Shown one piece after another: positions 2,376-54,929 of a stretch of 64,000 nt of DNA (the first letter of the stretch is position 1; every line of letters starts with the position of its first letter). The position numbers and the translations under genes were made by a program. Origin of the DNA: Escherichia phage EO1; sequence record OQ223305.1; one strand, 5' to 3'. A model generated the notes under the pieces. It worked only from the letters and a program-made list of their open reading frames with translations. It was not told the origin of the DNA and did not search any database.

Positions 2376-2448
2376 ATGTCCTCCTTATTGCTTTATATAT
2401 TTATTGTATAATTAATCTACTAACCCATGAATTGAAAGGAAAAATAAC

Positions 2449-2967
2449 ATGCCACATTTCAACGAATGTAGTCAACTGATCGAAGGCGCTGATAAAGCTC
2501 AAAATGAATATTGGGATATTCTCGGTGATGAAAAAGACCCGCTGCAGGTAATGCTTGACATGCAGAAATCTCTGCAAATTCGTTTAGCTAAAGATAAACC
2601 TGAATATAATCGTCATCCTGATGACTTGGCTACTGCCGGTGAAGTTGTTGATTGGTTGCGTAATCAGAAAGATTATATTGACGATGAATTCCGTGAACTT
2701 CTGACTTCTCTTGGTGGTATGAGTAATGGTGAAAAAGACGCATCTGCTGTATGGAAACCTTGGAAGTCGCAGCATGGTGAGCGTCGTGAAACTCTGATTA
2801 CTGATTTGTCTCCGCAAGACCAGTTAGAAATTAAATTTGAAATGATTGATATTCTTCATTTCGTTCTGAATATGTTCCAGGGTCTTGGTCTTACAGCTGA
2901 AGAAATCTTTAAACTTTATTACCTGAAAAATGCTGAAAATTTCGCACGTCAGGACCGAGGTTATTAA
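2449..2967 (+). CDS. 56: dCTP pyrophosphatase (dCTPase) gp56, MazG-like
   Basis: 172 aa; MazG-like acidic motif DDEFRELL; C-terminus YYLKNAENFARQDRGY recognised as T4 gp56. Confidence 0.85.
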   Translation: MPHFNECSQLIEGADKAQNEYWDILGDEKDPLQVMLDMQKSLQIRLAKDKPEYNRHPDDLATAGEVVDWLRNQKDYIDDEFRELLTSLGGMSNGEKDASAVWKPWKSQHGERRETLITDLSPQDQLEIKFEMIDILHFVLNMFQGLGLTAEEIFKLYYLKNAENFARQDRGY

Positions 2968-3107
2968 TGTCTCGTTTAAATAAACGTCAACTCAAAAAGT
3001 TGAATAAGAAAAGGGCGAAAGCCCTTACTGCTTTATTACGTAATGAAATAACTAAAGAAATAGACCAAGAGATTATTGAACAACTCTGGAAAGCCGCTAA
3101 ATTGTAA
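2967..3107 (+). CDS. small basic hypothetical protein, 46 aa
   Basis: hand-translated MSRLNKRQLKKLNKKRAKAL...; TAATG overlap with gene 56 stop; below track cutoff. Confidence 0.35.
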   Translation: MSRLNKRQLKKLNKKRAKALTALLRNEITKEIDQEIIEQLWKAAKL

Positions 3108-3109
3108 GT

Positions 3110-3117
3110 TATAAATA
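3110..3117 (+). promoter_or_regulatory. T4 late promoter (TATAAATA) for soc
   Basis: exact TATAAATA about 32 nt upstream of soc ATG; Soc is a late capsid protein. Confidence 0.6.
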
Positions 3118-9297: not shown

Positions 9298-9558
9298 ATG
9301 ATTAACATCAATTCAAAATATTTAAATCGTCTAATAGATGGTATAAGGAAGCATACTAATAAGCAAGATAATCTCGATGTTATGGTAACAGGAGCTGAGC
9401 TCCTTCATAAGCTTTATCTTATAAGTGATACTATATTAGCAATTAAACGAATTGAAAAACAATCATATCACAGTAATACAGATACGGTAATTACACTAGA
9501 TGAAAGTGTCTGTAAATTACTAATTAAATTTGAGGAAGCTATTCGTGGAAATAACTAA
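9298..9558 (+). CDS. hypothetical protein, 86 aa
   Basis: ORF in track; possible member of small tandem family. Confidence 0.45.
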   Translation: MININSKYLNRLIDGIRKHTNKQDNLDVMVTGAELLHKLYLISDTILAIKRIEKQSYHSNTDTVITLDESVCKLLIKFEEAIRGNN

Positions 9559-13596: not shown

Positions 13597-13971
13597 ATGT
13601 TTAAAATCGGTAAGAAATATCGTGTTCGCGAAGGTGAAGAAAAGAAATATCTACTTTCTGCTAGTAATAGGAATGGTTCTATTAATGCCGTAATATCTAC
13701 AAGCGAATTTATCGTTGAAGATATGAAAGGTCATAATGTTACAATGATTAGTACAGCAACTAGCAGAAATGCTGGAAAAATTCTTCACAGTCTGCGGAGT
13801 GAAGTTCTAATTTATGATGAAGAATTTGACTTCTTCGAAGAAGTCACTGAAGATTTTGATTTTGAATGCACTATCACTATGAAATCTGGCGACCCTCTTT
13901 CTTTTACAGTTAAAGATGAAAGAAGTCGCTTGAGAATTATTAGTCTTCTTCAAGCCATTAAATTTGAGTGA
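13597..13971 (+). CDS. hypothetical protein, 124 aa
   Basis: ORF in track; ATG 13597 (track start 13591 is GTG). Confidence 0.5.
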   Translation: MFKIGKKYRVREGEEKKYLLSASNRNGSINAVISTSEFIVEDMKGHNVTMISTATSRNAGKILHSLRSEVLIYDEEFDFFEEVTEDFDFECTITMKSGDPLSFTVKDERSRLRIISLLQAIKFE

Positions 13972-14305: not shown

Positions 14306-16123
14306 ATGATTAAGAATGAAATTAAAATTCTGAGCGATATTGAACATATCAAAAAGCGTAGTGGCATGTACATTGGCTCTTCTGCTAATGAAATGCATGA
14401 GCGCTTTCTGTTTGGTAAATGGGAAAGTGTTCAGTATGTACCTGGTCTTGTTAAGCTTATTGATGAAATTATCGATAACTCAGTCGATGAAGGTATTCGT
14501 ACTAAGTTTAAATTCGCGAATAAAATTAATGTTACCATTAAAAATAATCAGGTAACAGTTGAAGATAACGGTCGTGGTATTCCACAAGCGATGGTTAAAA
14601 CACCTACCGGTGAAGAAATTCCTGGTCCAGTTGCTGCTTGGACTATTCCAAAAGCGGGTGGTAACTTTGGTGATGATAAAGAACGTGTCACCGGTGGTAT
14701 GAATGGTGTTGGTTCTAGTTTAACTAACATTTTTTCTGTGATGTTTGTCGGTGAAACTGGCGATGGTCAAAATAATATTGTAGTTCGTTGTTCAAATGGT
14801 ATGGAAAATAAATCCTGGGAAACTATTCCTGGAAAATGGAAAGGAACTCGTGTTACTTTCATTCCTGATTTTATGTCATTTGAAACTAATGAGCTGTCCC
14901 AGGTTTATCTTGACATTACACTGGATCGTCTCCAGACACTTGCTGTCGTTTATCCTGATATTCAATTTACCTTTAATGGTAAAAAGGTTCAGGGCAATTT
15001 TAAGAAATATGCACGACAGTATGATGAACATGCTATCGTTCAAGAACAAGAAAATTGTTCTATTGCGGTTGGTCGTTCACCGGATGGATTTCGTCAATTA
15101 ACTTACGTGAATAACATTCACACTAAGAATGGTGGTCATCACATTGATTGTGTTATGGATGATATTTGTGAAGACCTTATTCCACAAATCAAACGTAAAT
15201 TCAAAATTGATGTAACTAAAGCACGCGTTAAAGAATGTTTGACTATCGTTATGTTTGTTCGTGATATGAAAAACATGCGATTTGATTCTCAAACTAAAGA
15301 GCGTTTGACTTCTCCATTTGGCGAAATTCGTAGTCATATTCAACTTGATGCTAAAAAGATTTCACGCGCTATTCTAAATAATGAAGCAATTTTAATGCCG
15401 ATTATTGAAGCTGCGTTGGCTCGTAAATTGGCGGCAGAAAAAGCAGCAGAAACTAAAGCAGCTAAAAAGGCTTCTAAAGCTAAGGTTCATAAACATATCA
15501 AAGCGAATCTCTGTGGTAAAGATGCTGACACTACTCTTTTCTTGACTGAGGGTGATTCTGCTATCGGATATCTTATTGATGTTCGTGATAAAGAACTTCA
15601 TGGTGGTTATCCATTGCGTGGTAAAGTTCTCAACAGTTGGGGTATGTCATATGCTGATATGCTTAAAAACAAAGAACTATTTGATATTTGCGCAATCACT
15701 GGATTAGTTCTTGGTGAAAAAGCTGAAAACTTGAATTATCATAATATTGCTATTATGACCGATGCTGACCATGATGGTTTAGGAAGCATTTATCCTTCTC
15801 TGCTCGGATTTTTTAGTAATTGGCCAGAATTGTTTGAGCAAGGACGAATTCGCTTTGTCAAAACTCCTGTAATCATCGCTCAGGTCGGTAAAAAACAAGA
15901 ATGGTTTTATACAGTCGCTGAATATGAGAGTGCTAAAGATGCTCTACCTAAACATAGCATCCGTTATATTAAAGGACTTGGCTCTTTGGAAAAATCTGAA
16001 TATCGTGAGATGATTCAAAATCCAGTATATGATGTTGTTAAACTTCCTGAGAACTGGAAAGAGCTTTTTGAAATGCTCATGGGAGATAATGCTGACCTTC
16101 GTAAAGAATGGATGAGCCAGTAG
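14306..16123 (+). CDS. 39: DNA topoisomerase II large (ATPase) subunit gp39, unsplit (39+60 equivalent)
   Basis: 605 aa; GHKL motifs IDNSVDEG, EDNGRGIP; TOPRIM LTEGDSA, DADHDG; single continuous frame. Confidence 0.9.
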   Translation: MIKNEIKILSDIEHIKKRSGMYIGSSANEMHERFLFGKWESVQYVPGLVKLIDEIIDNSVDEGIRTKFKFANKINVTIKNNQVTVEDNGRGIPQAMVKTPTGEEIPGPVAAWTIPKAGGNFGDDKERVTGGMNGVGSSLTNIFSVMFVGETGDGQNNIVVRCSNGMENKSWETIPGKWKGTRVTFIPDFMSFETNELSQVYLDITLDRLQTLAVVYPDIQFTFNGKKVQGNFKKYARQYDEHAIVQEQENCSIAVGRSPDGFRQLTYVNNIHTKNGGHHIDCVMDDICEDLIPQIKRKFKIDVTKARVKECLTIVMFVRDMKNMRFDSQTKERLTSPFGEIRSHIQLDAKKISRAILNNEAILMPIIEAALARKLAAEKAAETKAAKKASKAKVHKHIKANLCGKDADTTLFLTEGDSAIGYLIDVRDKELHGGYPLRGKVLNSWGMSYADMLKNKELFDICAITGLVLGEKAENLNYHNIAIMTDADHDGLGSIYPSLLGFFSNWPELFEQGRIRFVKTPVIIAQVGKKQEWFYTVAEYESAKDALPKHSIRYIKGLGSLEKSEYREMIQNPVYDVVKLPENWKELFEMLMGDNADLRKEWMSQ

Positions 16124-16152
16124 TTTACTTTACCACAAGGATGTGGTATAAT
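16123..16152 (+). promoter_or_regulatory. T4-type early promoter
   Basis: GTTTAC 16123-16128, 18-bp spacer, TATAAT 16147-16152. Confidence 0.65.
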
Positions 16153-16177
16153 TAATTGGGCAAATGAGGATATTGAA

Positions 16178-16381
16178 ATGAAATCATATAGAGTAAATTT
16201 AGAACTTTTTGATAAAGCAGTTCATCGAGAATATAGAATCATTCAACGCTTTTTCGATATGGGAGAAGCCGAAGAATTTAAAAACCGCTTTAAAGATATT
16301 AGAGATAAAATTCAATCCGACACCGCAACTAAAGATGAACTACTAGAAGTTGCTGAAGTTATTAAGCGTAATATGAATTAA
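16178..16381 (+). CDS. hypothetical protein, 67 aa (rIIA.1 position)
   Basis: ORF in track immediately upstream of rIIA. Confidence 0.55.
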
Positions 16382-27280: not shown

Positions 27281-27288
27281 TATTTATA
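27281..27288 (-). promoter_or_regulatory. T4 late promoter (TATAAATA) for t
   Basis: minus strand reads CATATAAATATCC, then AAGGAGG RBS and t start. Confidence 0.6.
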
Positions 27289-27307
27289 TGCTGAGAGGTA
27301 TTACCAT

Positions 27308-28087
27308 TTAAATCCAGGAACCGTAGATCGTGCCTGTTGCACCCCATGATGGTGAAGAACCAAATACCGCTCTACCTGGAGCACCACCGCCGGATCTAGA
27401 TAAGTGATTACCCCATCCATCTCCACCCCGACCTCCAGCATCACCGCCATTGCCTCCGCCGAATTGGGAAGTGTAACCGGCACCGCCCGGGGCGTCATAA
27501 CTAGCATTACCACCCGGCCAATTAACGCCGCCTCCGCCGATGCCAAATGGTCTACCACCACCGCCACCTGCTGTAGCATTTGGCGCCCAGCTATTCTGTA
27601 ATGACACTGCACCACCACCACCGCCGCCTGATGCAATAACGCCATAGTTCCAAATACGAAGTCTTCCGCCGATATCATTTTGGATTACATCGCCGCCATT
27701 TGTGCCTGGGTTTCCGTTTACAGTACCGTTACCACCTCGTCCCCACATATGAACTCCACCATGAATATTCAAAGTAACATATTCATTTGGCGTATCGCCA
27801 TACATAAAGAATAATGGAACATCTTTACTATATGATACCAAATTTCCGGTGATATTAAACACTATAGGTGCACTACCTGCCTCAAAACATCTATCTCGGA
27901 ACCATTGACCATTGAAGTTATGGTCTGCTCCAAGCGTGTGAATAATTTCTCGTGAGCGACCTGCAAATTGACTCATCCAGCAAGGAACACCCAATCTTAA
28001 TTGACCAGCCGCTTGACTCATCCAGCGCTGTCCAGTTTCATTTGCGGCTGAACTTCCAATCCAACCAGGAACACTAACTACTGCCAT
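27308..28087 (-). CDS. 38: gp38 receptor-recognising adhesin, T2-type (glycine-rich motifs)
   Basis: 259 aa; Gly runs [37 protein letters not shown] separated by variable segments. Confidence 0.85.
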
Positions 28088-28102
28088 AATTTATACTCCA
28101 AA

Positions 28103-28117
28103 GGGGGCGTTGCCCCC
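28103..28117 (-). other. GC hairpin between genes 37 and 38
   Basis: GGGGGC-GTT-GCCCCC; on the minus strand followed by GGAG and gene 38 ATG. Confidence 0.4.
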
Positions 28118-28123
28118 TTGTTG

Positions 28124-31100
28124 TTAGAATTTAAAATATTTACTAATTTTTCGAGCAATTTTAGTAAAGAAAGGCGTTTTCAATTCTTTAATTTCCTCAC
28201 TCATTTCCTGAATAGCCTTAATTAAAAGAGCATTCACAGCAGAGTTAGAAATTGTCAGAACATCAGATCCATCAACTTCAACTTTAGATACAGCTTCCAG
28301 TAATTCCTTTTCAAGGTCCTGAGCAATAATACCAACTTCACGTTTAATAACACTACGGTCTTTAATAGACTTAACTTTATCGTAAGTATAAACTTTCAGA
28401 CGGCATACTTTTTCAAGTGCTCCGTTTTCTAACTCTTCTTTATTAATCTTAAGACGATCATCAGAACGAATATAAACATCGTTAAAGTTACCATTACCAG
28501 GACAGTAAAAAGTACCATCATGATGGAACTCGAATACAGCTTGAGGATGACCAGCCGCTGGCGAGTTCTCCGCAGATCCAACACGAATGATTGCTTGCCC
28601 CCAATTTTGAGGAACACGACGCATACCAAAATCTACGGCAGTTGTATATCCTTGATTGGTGATTAAACTTCTGCCTTTAATAATTGGATAATAGCTATCC
28701 GGTCCAACATAGCCATGATCGACGAATATCGGAGCTTCTAAGCCCCATTGGTCGTTCCAACCTCCAGATTGACTAGCAGTCCAACGTTCACCATGAACAT
28801 AGAATCGAACGTTATTGACATGAGTCATTTCGATGCCTTTTGGACTTAGCGCGATATCCCCTCCGTTTGTAATGTATATACCGCCTTGCGTAACGTAACT
28901 GTAAAAACCTAGACCATTGTTTGCGCCACCTTTACCAATATACCAATTATTGACCCCGGCCGTATCAGAACGAATAAATGATGAATCACTGGCCAAAGGA
29001 GGATTAAGAACTATTCCAGCAGCATCTTTATTAATCCAAAGAGCGCCGGTCATCGTATCGCCTTCTTTGGCAACACGAGTAGCTATTGCATCACGAATAT
29101 TTGTAGTGTCTCCCGCAGAAGTAAACGTTTTCCAAATATCCGAGAAAATATTACCATTGCGAGCAATAGTAGCTTCACCGCCGCCGACCTGAACGTTATT
29201 GGGGAAATTAACTGTACCATCAGCATTAAATCTTGATGTATGGCCCTGTGATCCATCTTCTTTCAGATGATGTAAAACAAATGTACCCGAATTAATTTCA
29301 GTACCTAAAGACCAAACAGCTTTACTGTTTAAAAACTTCTGTTTAACAATAGGATAATATTTACTTACTGCGTCATCATCGATTTCCTGGAAAATAGGAG
29401 CTGCTTGAACATATTGAATATCATAACCACCAGCGCCTGCGCCGTGACCAGTAAATTTAATATAGCCGTTTGCTGCGAACGTATTGTAACTTGATTGTAA
29501 ATCTGGAATAGTAACTTTACCGGTATCTAAAGCCATACTAAACGGGCGAAGTGGACCGATATCACCATGTTTACCTTCACCATAAGCAGTTGGAATAATA
29601 TGAAGACTACCTTCTGAACGTCTAAAAATGGCTCCATAATCTGCATTCCAAATGCGAAGTGCATTCACAGCCCCAGATGAAATTTCGCCTGTTGTGTGAA
29701 CTCCTCTATTTCCAGCAGTAACACCAGATGATTCAAATGAACCGTTAACGTTCATTTCTATTTCACCGGTAGTAAGTCTTTGAATATAGCTCATCCAGCT
29801 AGTTGCATCGGAAATTTCCATGACATTTTTGCGATTACCTTCGCTAGGATTAGTAAATGTATTACCCCACACAGAAATTGTCATGTTATCCACAGAACTA
29901 CTACCTGTTGTGTTACCTCTAAACATCAGTGTAGAAGCATTATTTCTACCATCGATATTAACAGAACCACCAATAACGTCAATATTGCCTGGAGTAACTA
30001 ACAAACCGCCGTGAGTATTAATGTTTGTAGTGCCCTTGCCGCGGAAATAATGATGATAGTTACCGCCTTGATAATATCCTAAAAGAGTCTGACCATCTCC
30101 AAACGCGTTATTATCATGATATGTAACAACAGTAGCAAGAGCATAATTTTCAGTTGGAGGAGTAGTTAAATCGGTTCCGTTAGTAGAATATCCAGCTACA
30201 AATTTTCTTAGGCTAGTTGTTTCGCTAGGACTAAATAAAAACGTTTTTGTTCCATTATTAACGCTAAAATAATATCCATCTTGATGCCATTTAAATCCAG
30301 TATCATTATCTCCTAAAGCAATACTAGATGGTCCTAATATTGAATAATCTTTATTACCAGGTGTTAAACCAATAGAAATTGAGTGACTTGATTTAATTCC
30401 GCCGCTCCAAGTAAATGACCAAAGATAGGTGTCAAGTCCATCACCTGCATACCAAGTTATTCCATCATTATCTTTAACTTCATGGAAAATACCAGAACCA
30501 ACGGCATTACGCATGACACGAAGATGATTAATAGCAGTAGTGCTTTCAGACAATGGAACATTGTCTGCCATCGAATAGATGTCATAATCACCCGTAGATT
30601 TATTATTAGTAATGACTTTGTTGGTCAGAATTTGTGGAGACGAAATAGATTTCCATGCTGATACTTCAGGTGAAGTAAATAGTCCACTGCCTGAAAATGC
30701 ATAAGTGCTTTCGCTACCAGCGGCGTAGTCTTGAACCCTGATATTAAGTACTTGTGTAGTTAAACCATCATTAGCCGGGGCATAAATGATTCCGCGTTCG
30801 CGACTATTGTTATCGAAAAAACGAACATGCGCTGTACCTGAACTTTTTGTAATAAGTTCTCCGCCTTCAGTCATAATCTGCCCGGCGGCAATAATATCGC
30901 GAGTTACTCGAGCAATACCAGTTAAATTAAAATTACCAGTCTGAGTGAAGACGCCATTTAAAGTATAATCGCCAGTTTGGTTATAATTGCCTGTATGAAT
31001 AACATTCCCGTCAATACTACCGCCTTTAGCAAAACCCAGATCAATAATATTTCCTTGGTCATCTTTAGTAAAAAGTACACGGTCTTTTAAGTTTATAGCC

Positions 31101-38210: not shown

Positions 38211-38526
38211 TATTCGTCCGGTCGATGAGACCGGTCTTTCAGAAAAAGAACTTTCAATTAAGAAAGAAAAGGATGAAATAGCAAAGCTTCTTGATCGTCA
38301 AGAAAATGGATTTATTATTGAAAAGATGGTAGAAGAATTTGGAATGAGTTATCTTGAAGCTACGACAGCATTCTTGGAAGAAAACTCTATTCCTGAAACT
38401 CAATTTGCTAAATTTATTCCTTCGGGTATAATTGAAAAAATTCAGTCAGAAGCTATTGACGAAAATCTTTTACGTCCTTCTGTTGTTCGTTGTGAAAAAA
38501 CTAATACATTAGATTTTCTGCTATGA
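38188..38526 (+). CDS. 33: late-transcription coactivator gp33
   Basis: 112 aa from ATG 38188; between dsbA and 59. Confidence 0.75.
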   Translation: MTQFSLNDIRPVDETGLSEKELSIKKEKDEIAKLLDRQENGFIIEKMVEEFGMSYLEATTAFLEENSIPETQFAKFIPSGIIEKIQSEAIDENLLRPSVVRCEKTNTLDFLL

Positions 38527-39176
38527 TTAAACTCCGCATGCCTGCTGGTGGTGAAAGATATATTGATGGTAAATCAGTTTATAAATTATACTTAATGATA
38601 AAACAGCATATGAATGGAAAGTATGATGTTATTAAGTATAATTGGTGCATGCGGGTGTCTGATGCCGCTTATCAAAAGCGAAGGGATAAGTATTTTTTCC
38701 AGAAGTTATCAGAAAAATATAAATTAAAGGAACTTGCTTTAATCTTTATAAGTAATTTGGTTGCTAACCAAGATGCTTGGATTGGTGACATCTCTGACGC
38801 TGATGCACTTGTGTTTTATCGTGAATATATCGGACGCTTAAAGCAAATTAAATTTAAGTTTGAAGAAGATATTCGCAATATTTACTATTTTAGTAAAAAA
38901 GTTGAAGTTTCTGCTTTTAAAGAAATCTTTGAGTATAATCCAAAAGTTCAATCAAGTTATATTTTTAAACTACTTCAATCGAATATAATTTCGTTTGAGA
39001 CGTTTATCTTGCTTGATTCGTTTTTAAATATAATTGATAAACATGATGAACAGACTGATAATTTAGTCTGGAATAATTATTCTATAAAGTTAAAGGCTTA
39101 TAGAAAAATTTTAAATATTGATTCACAGAAAGCTAAAAATGTTTTCATTGAAACTGTGAAATCTTGTAAGTATTGA
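38523..39176 (+). CDS. 59: helicase loader gp59
   Basis: 217 aa, same length as T4 gp59; adjacent to gene 32 region. Confidence 0.8.
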   Translation: MIKLRMPAGGERYIDGKSVYKLYLMIKQHMNGKYDVIKYNWCMRVSDAAYQKRRDKYFFQKLSEKYKLKELALIFISNLVANQDAWIGDISDADALVFYREYIGRLKQIKFKFEEDIRNIYYFSKKVEVSAFKEIFEYNPKVQSSYIFKLLQSNIISFETFILLDSFLNIIDKHDEQTDNLVWNNYSIKLKAYRKILNIDSQKAKNVFIETVKSCKY

Positions 39177-39177
39177 T

Positions 39178-39810
39178 ATGAATATAGTATATTGGTTTAC
39201 ATTTGAAGACCGTGTCAAAAATAAGACTCCACCATACTACTATATCGGTAGTAAATTAAATTGCTCATTTGAGAACGGAATAATATATGACTCTTCCGGA
39301 AAGGAATACTGGAGCTCATGTAAACAAAAAAGATTTTTGAATGCGCTAATGCTTCAAAAACCGAGCGTTAAAATAATTCAAATTGATGATGACTTGGATG
39401 TTATTGAAGCAGAACGAAAATACCAACTTGAAGTAAATGCCAGAGATAATCCAGACTATTTTAATCTGGTATATGCTGGTGGTGGATTTGGTGTGAGTGG
39501 TGAAACTCATCCAGCCAAAGACCCGGAAGTTAGAGAGCATATGAGATTGGCTAATTATATGAACCGTGACGATTTTAGACCTTGGAAAACATCACGAGCT
39601 AATATAGAGTCTTGGAAATTATCTCATATTGCTTACGAGAATTATGTGTTATTATTATCCTCTAATCTGTACGGTAAAACTCCTGGATGGCGAAGAGTTA
39701 AAGGTAATATAAATATAACTGATACAACTGCTAAATCGATGGTAAAGTATTTCAACTCAGGTTGGATACCTCTCGAAGACCCAGAGTATTGCAAATTATG
39801 CCAGCTATGA
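39178..39810 (+). CDS. GIY-YIG family free-standing homing endonuclease (SegG-like by position)
   Basis: 210 aa; N-terminal IVYWFTFEDRVKNKTPPYYYIGSK (GIY...YIG-type); inserted between 59 and 32. Confidence 0.6.
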   Translation: MNIVYWFTFEDRVKNKTPPYYYIGSKLNCSFENGIIYDSSGKEYWSSCKQKRFLNALMLQKPSVKIIQIDDDLDVIEAERKYQLEVNARDNPDYFNLVYAGGGFGVSGETHPAKDPEVREHMRLANYMNRDDFRPWKTSRANIESWKLSHIAYENYVLLLSSNLYGKTPGWRRVKGNINITDTTAKSMVKYFNSGWIPLEDPEYCKLCQL

Positions 39811-39864
39811 GGTAAAGTGTCATAGCACCAACTGTTAATTAAATTAAGTTAAAAAGGAAATAAA
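39804..39864 (+). promoter_or_regulatory. gene 32 translational operator region (hairpin plus AU-rich unstructured leader)
   Basis: GCTATGA/TCATAGC hairpin 39804-39826, then TTAATTAAATTAAGTTAAAAAGGAAATAAA before ATG. Confidence 0.55.
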
Positions 39865-40797
39865 ATGTTTAAACGTAAATCTACTGCTGAACTTGCTGCA
39901 CAAATGGCTAAACTGAATGGCAATAAAGGTTTTTCTTCTGAAGATAAAGGCGAGTGGAAACTGAAACTCGATAATGCGGGTAACGGTCAAGCAGTAATTC
40001 GTTTTCTTCCGTCTAAAAATGATGAACAAGCACCATTCGCAATTCTTGTAAATCACGGTTTCAAGAAAAATGGTAAATGGTATATTGAAACATGTTCATC
40101 TACCCACGGTGATTACGATTCTTGTCCAGTATGTCAGTACATCAGTAAAAATGATTTATACAACACTGACAATAAAGAGTACGGTCTTGTTAAACGTAAA
40201 ACTTCTTACTGGGCTAACATTCTTGTAGTAAAAGACCCAGCTGCTCCAGAAAATGAAGGTAAAGTATTTAAATACCGTTTCGGTAAGAAAATCTGGGATA
40301 AAATCAATGCAATGATTGCAGTTGATGTTGAAATGGGTGAAACTCCGGTTGATGTAACTTGTCCGTGGGAAGGTGCTAACTTTGTACTGAAAGTTAAACA
40401 AGTTTCTGGTTTTAGTAACTACGACGAATCTAAATTCCTGAATCAATCTGCGATTCCAAACATTGATGATGAATCTTTCCAGAAAGAACTGTTCGAACAA
40501 ATGGTTGACCTTTCTGAAATGACTTCTAAAGATAAATTCAAATCGTTTGAAGAACTGAGCACTAAGTTCAGTCAAGTTATGGGAACTGCTGCTATGGGCG
40601 GTGCCGCAGCAACTGCCGCTAAGAAAGCTGATAAAGTTGCTGATGATTTGGATGCATTCAATGTTGATGACTTCAAAACAAAAACTGAAGATGATTTTAT
40701 GAGCTCAAGCTCTGGCAGTTCATCTGGTGCTGATGACACGGACCTCCTTGTCCTTCCATGGTACTATACAACTATCGGCAATACTGCTGATGATTAA
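39865..40797 (+). CDS. 32: ssDNA-binding protein gp32 (variant C-terminus)
   Basis: 310 aa; [23 protein letters not shown]; zinc site [10 protein letters not shown]; ends ...[22 protein letters not shown]. Confidence 0.92.
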
Positions 40798-40810
40798 AGA
40801 GGAAAATAAT

Positions 40811-41041
40811 ATGGCTAAAGTTGATATTGACATCGTTGATTTTGAATATATTGAAGAGATTATTCGTAATCGTTATCCTGAACTTAGTATCACAAGTATT
40901 CATGATGATCCCAATTATTGCAATTTTTCTATTGTCATTGAAGGTCCTCTTGAAGACCTCACCCGCTTTATGGCTAATGAATATTGTGATGGCATGGATT
41001 CTGAAGACGCAGAATTTTACATGGGACTGATTGAACAATAA
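40811..41041 (+). CDS. hypothetical acidic protein, 76 aa
   Basis: ATG 40811 with GAGGAAAA RBS (track start 40727 is alternative). Confidence 0.5.
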
Positions 41042-41048
41042 TTATCAA

Positions 41049-41067
41049 GGGGCTATTTGATAGCCCC
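41049..41067 (+). terminator. hairpin, possible terminator
   Basis: GGGGCTA-TTTGA-TAGCCCC; weak T tract. Confidence 0.4.
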
Positions 41068-41087
41068 GTTAAAATGAGGAAATCAAA

Positions 41088-41474
41088 GTGGAAGTTGGAA
41101 AAACTTATATCATTAACCCTTTATTTAAAAATGACTTTGCTAACGAGTGCCGTTGCAATGTAATGATGCTAAATTTAATAGAGAAGCACGGACCTAGTTT
41201 TGTTGTAGATGAAATGGAAAGTGATGATTGTGCTGGTGAATGTGTGGTACGTGTAACTATGGAAGATGGTACTGAATACATGGCGGGTGGCCCACTTGAG
41301 ACGTATTTTGAGATTTACTCTGAAGAATTCAAATACTTTACTGAGGTAACTTTAGAAAAGCCTCAATCCGCTAATGAAGGTATAGTTTCTGGCGTAACAA
41401 AAATTCACTGCATTGTTGACGAAAACAATGTAGATGAAATCATTGAACTTTTGCGAAAAACTTTTAAGGCCTAA
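41088..41474 (+). CDS. hypothetical protein, 128 aa, probable GTG start
   Basis: ORF in track; GAGGA 7 nt upstream of GTG 41088. Confidence 0.5.
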   Translation: MEVGKTYIINPLFKNDFANECRCNVMMLNLIEKHGPSFVVDEMESDDCAGECVVRVTMEDGTEYMAGGPLETYFEIYSEEFKYFTEVTLEKPQSANEGIVSGVTKIHCIVDENNVDEIIELLRKTFKA

Positions 41475-42047: not shown

Positions 42048-42407
42048 ATGTCTGACATTCATGTAGCTGGAATTGCTCGAGTAAGTATTCGTTGCCAACT
42101 TAAAACTGTACCCGGGACGGCTTATATTAATTTATCACACGACCTATGTTCTAGTGAAAGACCATTAACTGGTGTAATTACGTTTTACGCTGGAGTTGGC
42201 GGAAACGAATTTACTGTAGGCGAATTTGTTGGTCATAAATTAAAAGTTCAGAAGAATGTGTTAGAACTTTTTAATGACCTTTATGATGATAGCGATGAAG
42301 TTTTTGATGAAATCGCACAAGCAGTTAACAAAGGAATGGTAACTTTAGTTAAAATGATTAACTCTATCGGATATGCTCCTGACCCTTTTCGATGGGAGAT
42401 AATATAA
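42048..42407 (+). CDS. hypothetical protein, 119 aa
   Basis: ORF in track. Confidence 0.55.
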   Translation: MSDIHVAGIARVSIRCQLKTVPGTAYINLSHDLCSSERPLTGVITFYAGVGGNEFTVGEFVGHKLKVQKNVLELFNDLYDDSDEVFDEIAQAVNKGMVTLVKMINSIGYAPDPFRWEII

Positions 42408-42499
42408 TTTTTGTATTTGAGTTTATGAATGATGAATTCTATTATGCAATGCTTTAAAAATTGCATAGTCTTGATTTAAATGAATTTGAGGAAAATATA

Positions 42500-43419
<920 letters not shown>

Positions 43420-43439
43420 AATAACACGTGGCGGAAAAT

Positions 43440-43787
43440 ATGAATTTTAATTATTACCCTATTCTATTAGAAAAAGACGCGAAACAACCAAAATGGCAAG
43501 GTCCTCAGTTTATTAAAGGCGTCTATCAATTAGTAGTTCCTAAAGACAAGATTTATAGCAGTTGTTTCACTGAATCCGCTTGTAGTATTTTCGGTAATAG
43601 TTCTCCGTATTGGAATTTTGATATAAAGCTTGACAGAAATATCGATATTTGGTTGAAAGCTATGGATATCGGCAATATCACGTTTGATGAGAATAATTAT
43701 CATATTATTGGTCGCTTTTCCAAGCGTGGTAAAGAATTGTATTTTACGCCTGAAATTGAAAGAAAATTTGATGCTAAACCGTATTGA
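43440..43787 (+). CDS. hypothetical protein, 115 aa, between frd and td
   Basis: ORF in track (alt start 43428); no motif recognised. Confidence 0.5.
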   Translation: MNFNYYPILLEKDAKQPKWQGPQFIKGVYQLVVPKDKIYSSCFTESACSIFGNSSPYWNFDIKLDRNIDIWLKAMDIGNITFDENNYHIIGRFSKRGKELYFTPEIERKFDAKPY

Positions 43788-43831: not shown

Positions 43832-44692
43832 ATGAAACAATACCAAGATTTAATTAAAAACATCCTTGAAAATGGTTATGAAACCGATGACCGAACGGGC
43901 ACAGGAACAATTGCTCTGTTCGGTACTAAATTGCGTTGGGATTTAACTAAAGGTTTTCCTGCAGTAACAACTAAAAAGCTCGCCTGGAATGCATGCATTG
44001 CTGAGCTAATATGGTTTTTATCAGGAAGCACAAATGTCAATGATTTGCGATTAATTCAACATGATTCATCAATTCAAGGCAAAACAGTCTGGGATGAAAA
44101 TTACGAAAATCAAGCAAAAGATTTAGGATACCATAGCGGTGAACTTGGTCCAATTTATGGAAAACAGTGGCGTGATTTTGGCGGTGTAGATCAAATTATA
44201 GAAGTTATTGATCGTATTAAAAAACTGCCAAATGATAGGCGTCAAATTGTTTCTGCGTGGAATCCAGCTGAACTTAAATATATGGCATTACCGCCTTGTC
44301 ATATGTTCTATCAGTTTAATGTGCGTAATGGATACCTTGACCTTCAGTGGTATCAACGTTCGGTAGATGTTTTCCTCGGTCTTCCATTTAATATTGCATC
44401 ATATGCTACGTTAGTTCATATTGTAGCTAAGATGTGTAATCTTATTCCGGGAGATTTGATATTTTCTGGTGGTAATACTCATATCTATATGAATCACGTA
44501 GAACAATGTAAAGAAATTTTATGTCGTGAACCTATGGATTTATGCGAATTACAATTAAAATTTCCAGATGAATTTGATGAATGGAACACAGAATCGCAGG
44601 TATTTTGGTTGAGTCAATTTGCAAAGCCTCATAATTTTGTTCTTAACAACTATGAATCACATCCTCCTATTAAAGGAAAGATGGCGGTGTAA
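43832..44692 (+). CDS. td: thymidylate synthase, intronless
   Basis: 286 aa continuous; active-site [13 protein letters not shown]; no intron interruption. Confidence 0.92.
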
Positions 44693-45256: not shown

Positions 45257-47511
45257 TTAATGTTATCAAAAGTAGTGGTGTTTCTCAGAGCTTTGACCCA
45301 CAAAAAATTATTAAAGTTTTATCTTGGGCAGCTGAAGGAACATCTGTAGATCCTTATGAATTATATGAAAATATTAAATCATATCTCCGTGATGGAATGA
45401 CAACTGATGATATTCAGACTATTGTCATTAAGGCCGCTGCGAATTCTATTTCGGTTGAAGAACCTGATTATCAATATGTAGCTGCACGCTGTTTAATGTT
45501 TGCTCTTCGTAAGCATGTTTATGGGCAGTATGAACCACGTTCATTTATTGACCATATTTCTTACTGTGTAAATGAAGGTAAATATGACCCTGAATTATTG
45601 TCAAAATATTCAGCAGAAGAAATTACATTTTTAGAATCAAAAATTAAGCATGAGCGGGATATGGAATTTACTTATTCCGGGGCGATGCAATTAAAAGAAA
45701 AATATCTAGTTAAAGATAAAACCACTGGTCAAATTTATGAAACTCCACAGTTTGCATTTATGACTATTGGAATGGCATTGCATCAAGATGAACCTGTTGA
45801 TAGATTAAAACATGTTATTCGTTTTTATGAAGCAGTATCCACTCGACAGATTTCACTGCCAACTCCTATTATGGCTGGTTGCCGTACTCCAACTCGGCAG
45901 TTTAGTTCATGCGTTGTTATTGAGGCAGGTGATTCATTAAAGTCTATCAATAAGGCTTCCGCTTCAATTGTTGAATATATCTCTAAACGCGCTGGAATTG
46001 GTATTAACGTTGGTATGATTCGTGCTGAAGGTTCTAAGATTGGCATGGGTGAAGTACGCCATACTGGTGTTATTCCTTTTTGGAAACATTTTCAGACTGC
46101 TGTTAAATCATGTTCACAGGGTGGAATTCGTGGCGGCGCTGCTACTGCTTATTATCCTATTTGGCATTTGGAAGTTGAAAATCTTCTTGTTTTGAAAAAT
46201 AACAAAGGCGTAGAAGAAAACCGCATTCGTCATATGGATTATGGTGTTCAACTGAATGATTTGATGATGGAACGATTCGGAAAGAACGATTACATTACTT
46301 TGTTCAGTCCGCATGAAATGGGTGGAGAGCTTTATTATTCTTATTTTAAAGACCAAGACCGTTTCCGTGAATTATACGAAGCAGCAGAAAAAGACCCTAA
46401 TATTCGTAAAAAGCGTATTAAAGCCCGTGAACTATTTGAATTGCTCATGACTGAACGCTCAGGAACAGCAAGGATTTATGTGCAGTTCATTGATAATACG
46501 AATAACTATACTCCGTTTATTCGTGAAAAGGCACCTATTCGTCAGAGTAACTTGTGCTGTGAAATTGCTATTCCAACAAATGATGTGAATAGCTCTGATG
46601 CTGAAATTGGATTGTGCACGTTATCTGCATTTGTGCTGGATAACTTCGATTGGCAAGACCAAGATAAAATTAATGAATTAGCAGAAGTTCAAGTTCGTGC
46701 TCTTGATAATCTTTTGGATTACCAAGGATATCCAGTTCCTGAAGCAGAAAAAGCTAAAAAGCGTCGTAACCTCGGTATAGGTGTTACTAACTATGCAGCT
46801 TGGCTGGCAAGTAACTTTGCTTCTTATGAAGATGCTAACGATTTAACACATGAACTATTTGAGAGATTACAGTATGGACTCATTAAAGCATCCATTAAGC
46901 TCGCCAAAGAAAAAGGACCTTGCGAATATTATTCAGACACTCGTTGGTCTCGAGGCGAATTACCTATCGACTGGTACAATAAAAAGATTGACCAAATCGC
47001 AGCTCCAAAATACGTTTGTGACTGGTCGTCGCTGCGGGAAGACCTTAAGCTCTTTGGCATCCGTAATAGCACACTATCAGCACTTATGCCATGTGAGTCA
47101 TCTTCCCAAGTTTCTAACAGTACAAACGGTATCGAGCCTCCACGTGGACCAGTCTCTGTTAAAGAATCAAAAGAGGGCTCCTTTAATCAAGTCGTGCCCA
47201 ATATTGAGCATAACATAGACCTCTATGATTATACATGGAAATTAGCTAAGAAAGGTAATAAACCTTATCTTACGCAGGTAGCTATTATGCTAAAATGGGT
47301 TTGTCAATCAGCTTCGGCGAATACATATTATGACCCGCAGATTTTTCCAAAAGGAAAGGTTCCAATGTCTGTAATGATTGATGACATGCTATACGGATGG
47401 TATTATGGCATTAAAAACTTCTATTATCATAATACTCGTGATGGTTCCGGTACTGATGATTACGAAATAGAAACTCCAAAAGCCGATGATTGCGCAGCGT
47501 GTAAATTGTAA
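45247..47511 (+). CDS. nrdA: ribonucleotide reductase class Ia large subunit
   Basis: 754 aa; active-site SNLCCEI; C-terminal DCAACKL. Confidence 0.93.
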   Translation: MQLINVIKSSGVSQSFDPQKIIKVLSWAAEGTSVDPYELYENIKSYLRDGMTTDDIQTIVIKAAANSISVEEPDYQYVAARCLMFALRKHVYGQYEPRSFIDHISYCVNEGKYDPELLSKYSAEEITFLESKIKHERDMEFTYSGAMQLKEKYLVKDKTTGQIYETPQFAFMTIGMALHQDEPVDRLKHVIRFYEAVSTRQISLPTPIMAGCRTPTRQFSSCVVIEAGDSLKSINKASASIVEYISKRAGIGINVGMIRAEGSKIGMGEVRHTGVIPFWKHFQTAVKSCSQGGIRGGAATAYYPIWHLEVENLLVLKNNKGVEENRIRHMDYGVQLNDLMMERFGKNDYITLFSPHEMGGELYYSYFKDQDRFRELYEAAEKDPNIRKKRIKARELFELLMTERSGTARIYVQFIDNTNNYTPFIREKAPIRQSNLCCEIAIPTNDVNSSDAEIGLCTLSAFVLDNFDWQDQDKINELAEVQVRALDNLLDYQGYPVPEAEKAKKRRNLGIGVTNYAAWLASNFASYEDANDLTHELFERLQYGLIKASIKLAKEKGPCEYYSDTRWSRGELPIDWYNKKIDQIAAPKYVCDWSSLREDLKLFGIRNSTLSALMPCESSSQVSNSTNGIEPPRGPVSVKESKEGSFNQVVPNIEHNIDLYDYTWKLAKKGNKPYLTQVAIMLKWVCQSASANTYYDPQIFPKGKVPMSVMIDDMLYGWYYGIKNFYYHNTRDGSGTDDYEIETPKADDCAACKL

Positions 47512-48242
47512 TGAATTATCAAAAAATTTATAACGACCTAATTTCCCGAGCTCAGGCTCGGGAATCTTTATCAGAATATAAAGAGACACATCATATAATC
47601 CCTAGATGTATGGGAGGTTCTGATGATAAGGAAAATTTAGTTGAATTAACAGCCAGAGAACATTTTATAGCTCATCTACTACTATGTAAGATAAATGAAG
47701 GCCATTTTGGGCTTGCCTCTGCGTTAACGTTAATGGCAACAGATAAAGCTGGCAATAGAATTAATAACAGATTGTACAGCTTACACAGAAAATTATTTGC
47801 TAAAGCTAATTCTGAGTTCTTTAAGAAATATTGGAAAAATAATCCTCATCCTAAAGGAATGTTAGGCAAGCATCATAAAAACGAAACCAAACAGCATGTA
47901 TCAAAAGTGAATAGATACGCATGCCCATCTATAGAAATACATAAATTCTCATTAGATGGGGATTTCATAGAAACCTTTCACTCTATTGCAGCAGCGTCCC
48001 GGTCAGTTAATGGAAACGGGTCAAATATCAAATATTGCGCCGAGGGTAAATTTCAATATGCTTATGGATTTAGATGGTCATATCAACTTGATGCAAAGTT
48101 TGACAAAATAAAACCAAGAGATTATAAAGGAATCCGCGGTAAGAAATGGATTAATAATGGAAGTGAATGCACGCTTATAGGTAAAGATGATATTATACCG
48201 CCAGGTTGGAAACACGGCAGAATTTTAAAGAGGAAAAATTAA
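47511..48242 (+). CDS. HNH family free-standing homing endonuclease (Mob-like)
   Basis: 243 aa; HNH motif THHIIPRCMGGSDDKENLVELTAREHFIAH; TAATG overlap with nrdA and ATG overlap with nrdB. Confidence 0.7.
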   Translation: MNYQKIYNDLISRAQARESLSEYKETHHIIPRCMGGSDDKENLVELTAREHFIAHLLLCKINEGHFGLASALTLMATDKAGNRINNRLYSLHRKLFAKANSEFFKKYWKNNPHPKGMLGKHHKNETKQHVSKVNRYACPSIEIHKFSLDGDFIETFHSIAAASRSVNGNGSNIKYCAEGKFQYAYGFRWSYQLDAKFDKIKPRDYKGIRGKKWINNGSECTLIGKDDIIPPGWKHGRILKRKN

Positions 48243-49420
48243 TGTCTACAGTTTTTAATACAAATCCAGTTGATGTTTTAAAAGAACCTATGTTCTTCGG
48301 TTCAGGTCTTGGTATTGCGCGTTATGATATTCAACGTCATAAAGTTTTTGAAGATTTAACTGAAAAGCAGTTGTCATTTTTCTGGCGTCCTGAAGAAGTA
48401 AACTTGATGATGGATGCTGCACAGTTTAATAAGCTTCCTCAGTACCAGCAAAATATTTTTACTAATAACCTGAAGTATCAATCACTTTTGGATAGCATTC
48501 AGGGCCGCGCGCCATCTGCCGTACTTATGTCATTAATTTCAGACCCAAGCCTTGATACATGGGTTGCTACATGGACTTTTAGTGAAACTATTCACAGTCG
48601 TTCATATACTCATATTATGCGAAATCTTTATACTGATCCGTCAAAGGTATTTGATGAAATTGTATTAGATGAAGCTATTATGAAACGTGCTGAATCCATT
48701 GGACGTTATTATGATGATGTTCTGATTAAAACTCGTTATTGGGAAAACGCTAAAGCTGATATCGAATACCAAAAAGAAATTAATGCAGACGAAGACGTTA
48801 TTGAAGATGCTATTGAGCATGAGACATATTGGAAGCATGAGCTAATGAAATCTCTTTACCTCTGTTTGCATGTAATCAACGCATTGGAAGCTATTCGTTT
48901 TTATGTATCTTTCGCATGTACCTTTAACTTCCATAAGAACATGGAAATCATGGAAGGTAATGCCAAGATTATGAAGTTCATTGCTCGTGATGAGCAGCTT
49001 CACCTTAAAGGCACCCAATATATTATTCGTCAACTTCAACTTGGCACTGATGGTGATGAATGGGTTAAAATCGCCCAAGAGTGTGAACAAGAAGCAGTTG
49101 ATATTTTCATGGAAGTTAACCGCCAAGAAAAAGATTGGGCAGTTCATTTATTTAAAGATGGCGATGTTCCTGGATTAAATACAAATAGCATGTGGAGCTT
49201 TATTGATTACTTAACTGTATCTCGTATGAAACAGTGCGGTCTTCCATGCCCAATTACCGATGCTCCGGTTAAACATCCGTATCCTTGGATTCGTGAATAT
49301 CTTAATTCTGATAATGTTCAATCCGCGCCGCAAGAAGTAGAACTGTCATCTTATCTTGTTGCACAGATTGATAATGATGTTGATGATAAAGTTATGATGA
49401 GTTTTAAAAAATACTTTTAA
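48242..49420 (+). CDS. nrdB: ribonucleotide reductase class Ia small subunit, intronless
   Basis: 392 aa from ATG 48242; MSTVFNTNPVDVLKEPMFFGSG; continuous frame. Confidence 0.9.
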   Translation: MSTVFNTNPVDVLKEPMFFGSGLGIARYDIQRHKVFEDLTEKQLSFFWRPEEVNLMMDAAQFNKLPQYQQNIFTNNLKYQSLLDSIQGRAPSAVLMSLISDPSLDTWVATWTFSETIHSRSYTHIMRNLYTDPSKVFDEIVLDEAIMKRAESIGRYYDDVLIKTRYWENAKADIEYQKEINADEDVIEDAIEHETYWKHELMKSLYLCLHVINALEAIRFYVSFACTFNFHKNMEIMEGNAKIMKFIARDEQLHLKGTQYIIRQLQLGTDGDEWVKIAQECEQEAVDIFMEVNRQEKDWAVHLFKDGDVPGLNTNSMWSFIDYLTVSRMKQCGLPCPITDAPVKHPYPWIREYLNSDNVQSAPQEVELSSYLVAQIDNDVDDKVMMSFKKYF

Positions 49421-54401: not shown

Positions 54402-54929
54402 ATGAGCGAATGGTTTGAAGAAGATAAGGTTTATCGCTTTAAAGCTGGATATAAAGATATTTTTAATGAAACTTGCGGGGCTAATAAACGAATTGCCCAG
54501 TTTATTGGGGAAAATTCATTTAAAGTAAAAATAGATCCTGCGAAAAATGTTATTAGCATTAAACGCGAAATTGATGATTGTTGGTATAAAGCTGTTGATG
54601 TAATGGGTGAATCCTATAAAGTTAGCCCGTTATTTTCAATTGCTTATATGTTAGAATATTCTTTTTTCGAAGAAGTTCAAAAAGATGATTCTACAAGTAA
54701 ATTTGAAATTAAAGCTGATAAAGAAATTAAGTGGAAAGTAGTAGGTATTACTGGTTGTATGTTCTATATCTATGCTCAAACTGATACGAAGGAAGAAGCT
54801 AAAAAGAAAGCTCTAGAATATCTTGAAGAGTATGAAGAAGGCCCGGTAATGATTACCCAAGATGCCGAATTAGTTTCTGTCAAATTAGTTAAAAACGTTG
54901 AAAGTAAGGAGCTGGGATCAACATGCTAA
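54402..54929 (+). CDS. hypothetical protein, 175 aa
   Basis: ORF in track; GAGGAAA RBS. Confidence 0.55.
   Translation: MSEWFEEDKVYRFKAGYKDIFNETCGANKRIAQFIGENSFKVKIDPAKNVISIKREIDDCWYKAVDVMGESYKVSPLFSIAYMLEYSFFEEVQKDDSTSKFEIKADKEIKWKVVGITGCMFYIYAQTDTKEEAKKKALEYLEEYEEGPVMITQDAELVSVKLVKNVESKELGSTC

Follow-up and report, generated by a model that had tools for sequence, protein, structure and literature searches.

A T4-type segG gene between genes 59 and 32 of Escherichia phage EO1 and the evidence for its GIY-YIG nuclease domain

Introduction

T-even phages host selfish nucleases that are either free-standing or intron-borne, among them SegA, SegB, SegG and I-TevII. The closest described counterpart of the gene considered here is SegG of phage T4 (gene 32.1; NP_049855; Liu, Belle, Shub, Belfort & Edgell, J Mol Biol 2003). 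This protein is a homing endonuclease of the GIY-YIG family that is active, targets gene 32 and excludes the gene 32 markers of T2 (PMC2988022; PMC2330249; PMC535899). Gene 32 is listed as the SegG target in Table 1 of PMC2988022, and the same paper places the cleavage site hundreds of bp away from segG and locates the middle and late promoters of gene 32 within segG. The pseudoknot of the T4 gene 32 mRNA also overlaps ORF 32.1/segG (PMC535899).

Two other T4 systems are useful for comparison. I-TevI, the td intron endonuclease whose catalytic domain is available in the PDB (1LN0/1MK0), is intron-encoded, cleaves 23-25 bp away from where it is inserted and features a zinc finger, NUMOD3 and HTH modules recognized by Pfam, and a catalytic arginine, R27. 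SegF resembles SegG in being a free-standing homing endonuclease that takes part in marker exclusion against T2; it occupies the slot between genes 56 and soc instead, and a BLASTP comparison of SegG with SegF revealed no similarity. The target of SegF, in work by Belle and colleagues from 2002, is reportedly gene 56 of T2. As for SegG, Liu and colleagues are said to have found in 2003 a cleavage site 332 bp from the insertion site, together with a limited inheritance of segG itself.

Here, we describe the segG locus in a stretch of 64,000 nucleotides of the Escherichia phage EO1 genome (OQ223305.1), hereafter the window. We compare it with T4 and its relatives, examine how far its product can be assigned to the GIY-YIG nucleases and survey the other homing elements that are present or missing in this mosaic genome.

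Results

A T4 segG ortholog in the slot between genes 59 and 32

The open reading frames of the window include one of 210 codons that starts with ATG and spans positions 39178..39810 on the + strand. It begins 1 nt past the stop codon of gene 59 (TGA, 39174-39176) and stops 54 nt short of the ATG of gene 32 (39865). The upstream neighbour, identified from its reading frame and the T4 annotation, encodes the helicase loader gp59 (217 aa; 38523..39176, + strand), and the downstream neighbour encodes the single-stranded DNA-binding protein gp32 (310 aa, with an altered 3' end; 39865..40797, + strand). The order rnh-dsbA-33-59-ORF-32-frd.3 and its orientation are those of T4 (NC_000866), and collinearity around the ORF runs through 34, rnh, dsbA, 33, 59, ORF, 32, frd.3 and frd.2. 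In T4, the slot between 59 and 32 is annotated as SegG, "site-specific DNA endonuclease; GIY-YIG family".

At the DNA level the gene is 99.7% identical to T4 segG. The encoded proteins have equal length and share 209 of 210 residues, the sole change being E206K, which falls in the last helix of the C-terminal region. The segG DNA of phage PE37 is 100% identical to the window copy, including the E206K variant. A comparison with PHROG families returned PHROG 7504, 'homing endonuclease', with an E-value of 8.5e-134. An initial sequence-only reading had proposed a 210-aa ORF with a GIY...YIG-type N-terminus, packed tightly between genes 59 and 32 at the position of T4 segG. The ORF was indeed recovered, its N-terminus (MNIVYWFTFEDRVKNKTPPYYYIGSK) contains an 'IVY ... 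YIG' pair, and the gaps of 1 nt and 54 nt, the T4 synteny and the DNA identity bear out its placement. Judged by its sequence, the 210-codon gene is thus the ortholog of T4 segG, an already characterised homing-endonuclease gene, and is known rather than new.

Resemblance to T4 extends to the control signals of gene 32. An exact match to the T4 late-promoter consensus, TATAAATA, lies inside segG, some 150 nt ahead of gene 32 (39708..39715, + strand), in a sequence context that is 100% identical to T4; nine such matches were found in the window versus ten expected, so that the match alone is not above chance. The hairpin GCUAUGA/UCAUAGC of the translational-operator pseudoknot of the gene 32 mRNA maps to 39804..39826 (+ strand), and its 5' arm includes the segG stop codon (39808-39810). 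Folding of 39804-39826 gave -9 kcal/mol with a z-score of -1.2, which is not significant alone, and an Rfam scan of 38400-41200 assigned no meaningful family to the operator of gene 32. Neither signal is significant on its own; both agree with the published control signals of gene 32.

The other end of gene 32 departs from T4. At 40745-40758, about 105-118 bp of T4 sequence (T4 146856-146972) have given way to 12 nt of filler, CCTTGTCCTTCC. Gone with them are the final eight codons of gene 32 together with its stop, the terminator GGGGACCCTAGAGGTCCCC-T6 and the -35 region that precedes frd.3. As a result, gp32 has 310 aa here, with another C-terminal tail in place of the T4 ...DTDLDDLLNDL. Across the deletion junction, the match breaks into two pieces in about 500 phage records, and no exact match to the junction was found in phage records, IMG/VR or metagenome contigs. 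The deletion is private to this genome and could be either real or an assembly error.

Sporadic distribution and linkage to gene 32 alleles

Among close relatives of T4 that are otherwise collinear, the presence of segG is sporadic. The gene occurs in 141 phage records, as against 628-850 records that contain the flanking genes, and in 2 of 22 dereplicated IMG/VR loci, one of these two copies being frameshifted. Gene 59 directly adjoins gene 32, with segG absent, in T2 and in two of the IMG/VR loci (L008 and L009). The frameshifted copy (locus L006, 1318-1951) is split into frames of 64 and 174 aa, a case of decay in place. More distant T4-like phages carry homologs at 60% and 39% identity in the same slot between 59 and 32, which indicates that the association of the SegG family with this site is old. 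A more distant T4-like phage (locus L019, 682-1290) harbors a different, canonical GIY-YIG ORF of 202 aa, located upstream of gene 59 and not between 59 and 32.

In a comparison of eight genomes, five with and three without segG, the beginning of gene 32 was found to follow the presence of the endonuclease gene. Positions 39916, 39917 and 39921 and a 3-nt indel at 39927 track segG perfectly, and linkage decays past about 39930, a pattern which, in a sample as small as eight genomes, proximity alone could explain. In 118 records, gene 32 begins with 236 nt of the T4 type. When only T4 and T2 are compared, the window is T4-like from segG to 40095 and T2-like past 40107, and a cleavage site at the reported 332 bp would fall near 40095-40107. 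We considered this switch as a co-conversion boundary at the reported cleavage site and withdrew the proposal, as most of the sites concerned prove, with eight genomes, to be private T2 or T4 alleles. For the T2 record AY310907, no cleavage-site annotation was found. Taken together, the data are only suggestive of co-conversion in this genome, and a recent homing event into it is not demonstrated.

Standard profile libraries and the SegG domain

The sequence-only reading recommended a profile search for GIY-YIG and NUMOD domains and regarded the lack of any GIY-YIG profile match as grounds for rejecting the assignment. Taken literally, the outcome with standard libraries was negative. Neither Pfam, including PF01541 (GIY-YIG) and PF19835 (SegE_GIY-YIG), nor NCBIfam gave any match to the window protein at E<=10, and no NUMOD domain (NUMOD1/3/4) was found in the Pfam scan at the same threshold. 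Controls place this result in context: T4 SegG and T4 SegF were likewise without a Pfam match, whereas SegA (E 3e-9) and I-TevI do match PF01541. Among 87 SegG relatives, none matched PF01541 and five weakly matched PF19835. Since T4 SegG, which is experimentally defined, fails in the same way, the absence of matches reflects a limit of the library models and not of the window copy. SegF (seen in locus L004, 15606-16280) and the SegG-type N-terminal domain are both undetected by any Pfam-A model.

Searches centred on known structures were similarly unproductive. Phmmer and hmmsearch runs of SegG and of two alignments of its homologs (A1 and A2) against PDB sequences retrieved no GIY-YIG chain; the sole match, to the NUMOD3 region of I-TevI, was contributed by the relatives in A2 and not by the window protein. 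Aligning A1 and A2 with the single I-TevI sequence using hhalign left the catalytic domain unaligned.

The picture changed when a profile was built from the SegG family itself. A homolog search with SegG yielded 29 proteins, and an exhaustive profile search collected 569 cluster representatives at E<=1e-3. The members have the N-terminal ~105 residues in common and vary at their C-termini. Conservation was assessed on 87 diverse relatives with 22-37% identity, 52 of which contain NUMOD3. In hmmsearch, the N-terminal family profile recognized T4 SegA (18.7 bits) and I-TevII (18.1 bits). Using hhalign, the same profile aligned with a small alignment of SegA, SegB, the GIY-YIG ORF of locus L019, I-TevII and I-TevI over 86 columns, with a probability of 96.75% and an E-value of 3.1e-10.

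The register of this alignment pairs IVY with GIY, YIG with YIG, YWSS with the Seg-type Y-x-G-S-G, E79 with I-TevI E75 and N96 with N90, so that Y5, Y22, G24, E79 and N96 of SegG face Y6, Y17, G19, E75 and N90 of I-TevI. In the 87 relatives, Y22, G24, E79 and N96 are 100% conserved, Y5 is conserved at 99%, and Y44, S47 and K26 at 98% or more. An alternative register, with YYIGS read as 'GIY' and EYWSS as 'YIG', was rejected because the Seg proteins have YIG followed by Y-x-G-S-G and the profile alignment pairs the SegG motifs with those. One feature of canonical enzymes has no evident counterpart, as the family lacks a conserved arginine after YIG that would correspond to the motif-B arginine (I-TevI R27): R52 varies among the relatives, and conservation of basic residues is confined to K26 (98%) and R12 (78%).

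These data delineate three parts in the protein. The N-terminal catalytic domain, predicted to adopt a Seg-type GIY-YIG fold, covers approximately residues 1-101 (39178..39480, + strand) and features IVY (aa 3-5), YIG (22-24), YWSS (44-47), E79 and N96. It is followed by a flexible inter-domain linker, GFGVSG (aa 103-108; 39484..39501, + strand), and by a helical C-terminal region, approximately residues 109-210 (39502..39807, + strand), presumed to be the DNA-binding module. An AlphaFold2 model computed with the family alignment shows two domains with a mean pLDDT of 89.8; the linker is the only disordered part and the only segment with a pLDDT below 50. The predicted model contains the α/β fold of GIY-YIG domains, a three-stranded sheet with flanking helices. 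In a Foldseek search of the model against the PDB, I-TevI ranked second, at a non-significant level (E 1.8, TM 0.54 on target). The assignment of the N-terminus to the Seg-type GIY-YIG nuclease domains, with conserved Tyr/Tyr/Gly/Glu/Asn, is supported by the profile alignment, and a GIY-YIG fold of the catalytic domain is supported by the predicted structure.

Compared with SegA, SegB and I-TevII, SegG has a homologous catalytic domain, in which GIY, YIG, the second Y-x-(G/S)-S, Glu and Asn are in register. Sequence identity is nonetheless very low, the C-terminal domain and target gene differ, and SegA is detected by PF01541 whereas SegG is not. In addition, the loop of the GIY-YIG hairpin is longer in SegG, where it counts 16 residues including the conserved R12 and P19, and a further β-hairpin is present (aa 30-37). 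SegG differs from I-TevI in being free-standing, in having no Pfam-detectable NUMOD or zinc finger and in lacking a conserved Arg at the R27 equivalent.

Other homing elements in a mosaic genome

The window is that of a mosaic Tequatrovirus; over 40000-64000 its best relatives in the database are about 96% identical to it, and no record comes closer. The sequence-only reading had remarked on the absence of segF and of introns and on an HNH gene at 47511, remarks that proved accurate on comparison with T4. Positions 2967-3110 replace T4 15610-16270, which removes segF and leaves a 46-aa ORF (2967-3107) in its place, and gene 56 shares only 75% identity with its T4 counterpart. The td intron is missing at 44380/44381, td being an uninterrupted ORF of 286 aa, and the nrdB intron is missing at 48915/48918, where the nrdB ORF is again uninterrupted. 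The HNH gene corresponds to a mobE-like ORF (47511..48242, 243 aa) that matches NUMOD1 with 25.9 bits, above the cut-off, and HNH with 20.8 bits, just under the cut-off of 21.4. T4 mobE has 141 aa and matches over the first ~164 nt only, after which the sequences diverge; the long variant at 47511-48242 is common to 54 phage records.

Further differences from T4 were observed. The T4 dam methyltransferase gene (~900 bp) is missing between 61 and 56 (window 2386-2407). A single ORF at 14306-16123 encodes a topoisomerase II large subunit of 605 aa; the window has neither the mobA/60.1 insertion that splits 39 and 60 in T4 nor the translational bypass of 50 nt in gene 60, some 1.1 kb of T4 sequence being missing at 15723-15775. 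Extra small ORFs relative to T4 were found at 42048-42841, 43428-43787, 54402-54929, 13597-13971 and 9298-9558, with products of 119 aa (DUF7247), 126 aa, 119 aa (frd to td), 175 aa (cd.2 to cd.3), 124 aa and 86 aa, none of which has a nuclease-related Pfam match. The tail-fibre adhesin region (gene 38 and distal gene 37, 27288-31020) has no nucleotide similarity to T4, which points to a different receptor-binding module.

Discussion

The window gene is very probably a T4-type segG, a free-standing selfish homing-endonuclease gene whose activity can be anticipated from that of the T4 protein. It shares with T4 segG its length, slot, orientation, late-promoter consensus and overlap with the gene 32 operator, and differs in having K206 where T4 has E206 and in its genomic setting, that of another mosaic Tequatrovirus devoid of segF, mobA and the td and nrdB introns. 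According to the T4 literature, in mixed infections with T2 or another relative that lacks segG, SegG makes a site-specific double-strand break in the gene 32 of its rival. Repair from the segG-carrying genome then copies donor gene 32 sequence, and less often segG, into the rival, an outcome named marker exclusion or 'intronless homing'. As the protein is essentially identical to T4 SegG, the same activity would be expected from the K206 variant. The C-terminal module would bind the target and the tethered GIY-YIG domain would cut at a distance, as in I-TevI, while the gene 32 promoters embedded in segG may help to protect the gene from deletion.

Those promoters also lend themselves to another explanation, in which segG is a retained but inert passenger, kept only because gene 32 has its promoters and the 5' arm of its operator inside it, with no nuclease action in this phage. 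The late-promoter consensus and the operator hairpin do overlap the ORF, and it has been argued that embedded promoters favour retention (PMC2988022). A frameshifted segG persists in an IMG/VR locus, and the reportedly limited inheritance of segG itself would fit such a role. The copy in the window is nevertheless an intact ORF of 210 codons, one C-terminal residue away from an active protein, and it contains every family-invariant residue. Moreover, homologs down to 22-64% identity retain full-length ORFs, which indicates selection on the SegG protein, and we regard an inert passenger as very unlikely.

Still less credible is a reading in which SegG is a DNA-binding or regulatory protein and not a GIY-YIG enzyme, the IVY...YIG letters being coincidental. 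It could draw on the silence of Pfam and NCBIfam about GIY-YIG, on the failure of hhalign with I-TevI alone to find anything in the catalytic domain, on the missing clear motif-B arginine and on the resemblance of the C-terminal half to HTH domains. The present analysis has largely refuted it, and its probability is close to nil. A more speculative possibility, to which we give a low but not negligible weight, takes the missing arginine at face value: the SegG-type domain would be a distinct GIY-YIG subclass in which the motif-B Arg has disappeared or moved elsewhere, perhaps to K26 or R12 of the enlarged hairpin, and which may cut with a variant active site. The same weight attaches to a separate suggestion, that the deletion at the 3' end of gene 32 could be a scar left when a nuclease break was repaired imprecisely.

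With the T4-type homing endonuclease retained as the preferred interpretation, the value of this work resides in a correct annotation, namely that of a T4-like (Tequatrovirus) genome with a textbook segG, and in a record of the homing elements present and missing in a mosaic phage. In crosses, SegF, I-TevI and mobA-type elements would find a natural recipient in such a genome. Standard profile libraries miss both SegG and SegF, which makes "no Pfam hit" an unsafe refutation for phage homing endonucleases. The gap concerns a SegG-type family with 569 or more cluster representatives; a model dedicated to that family would fill it.
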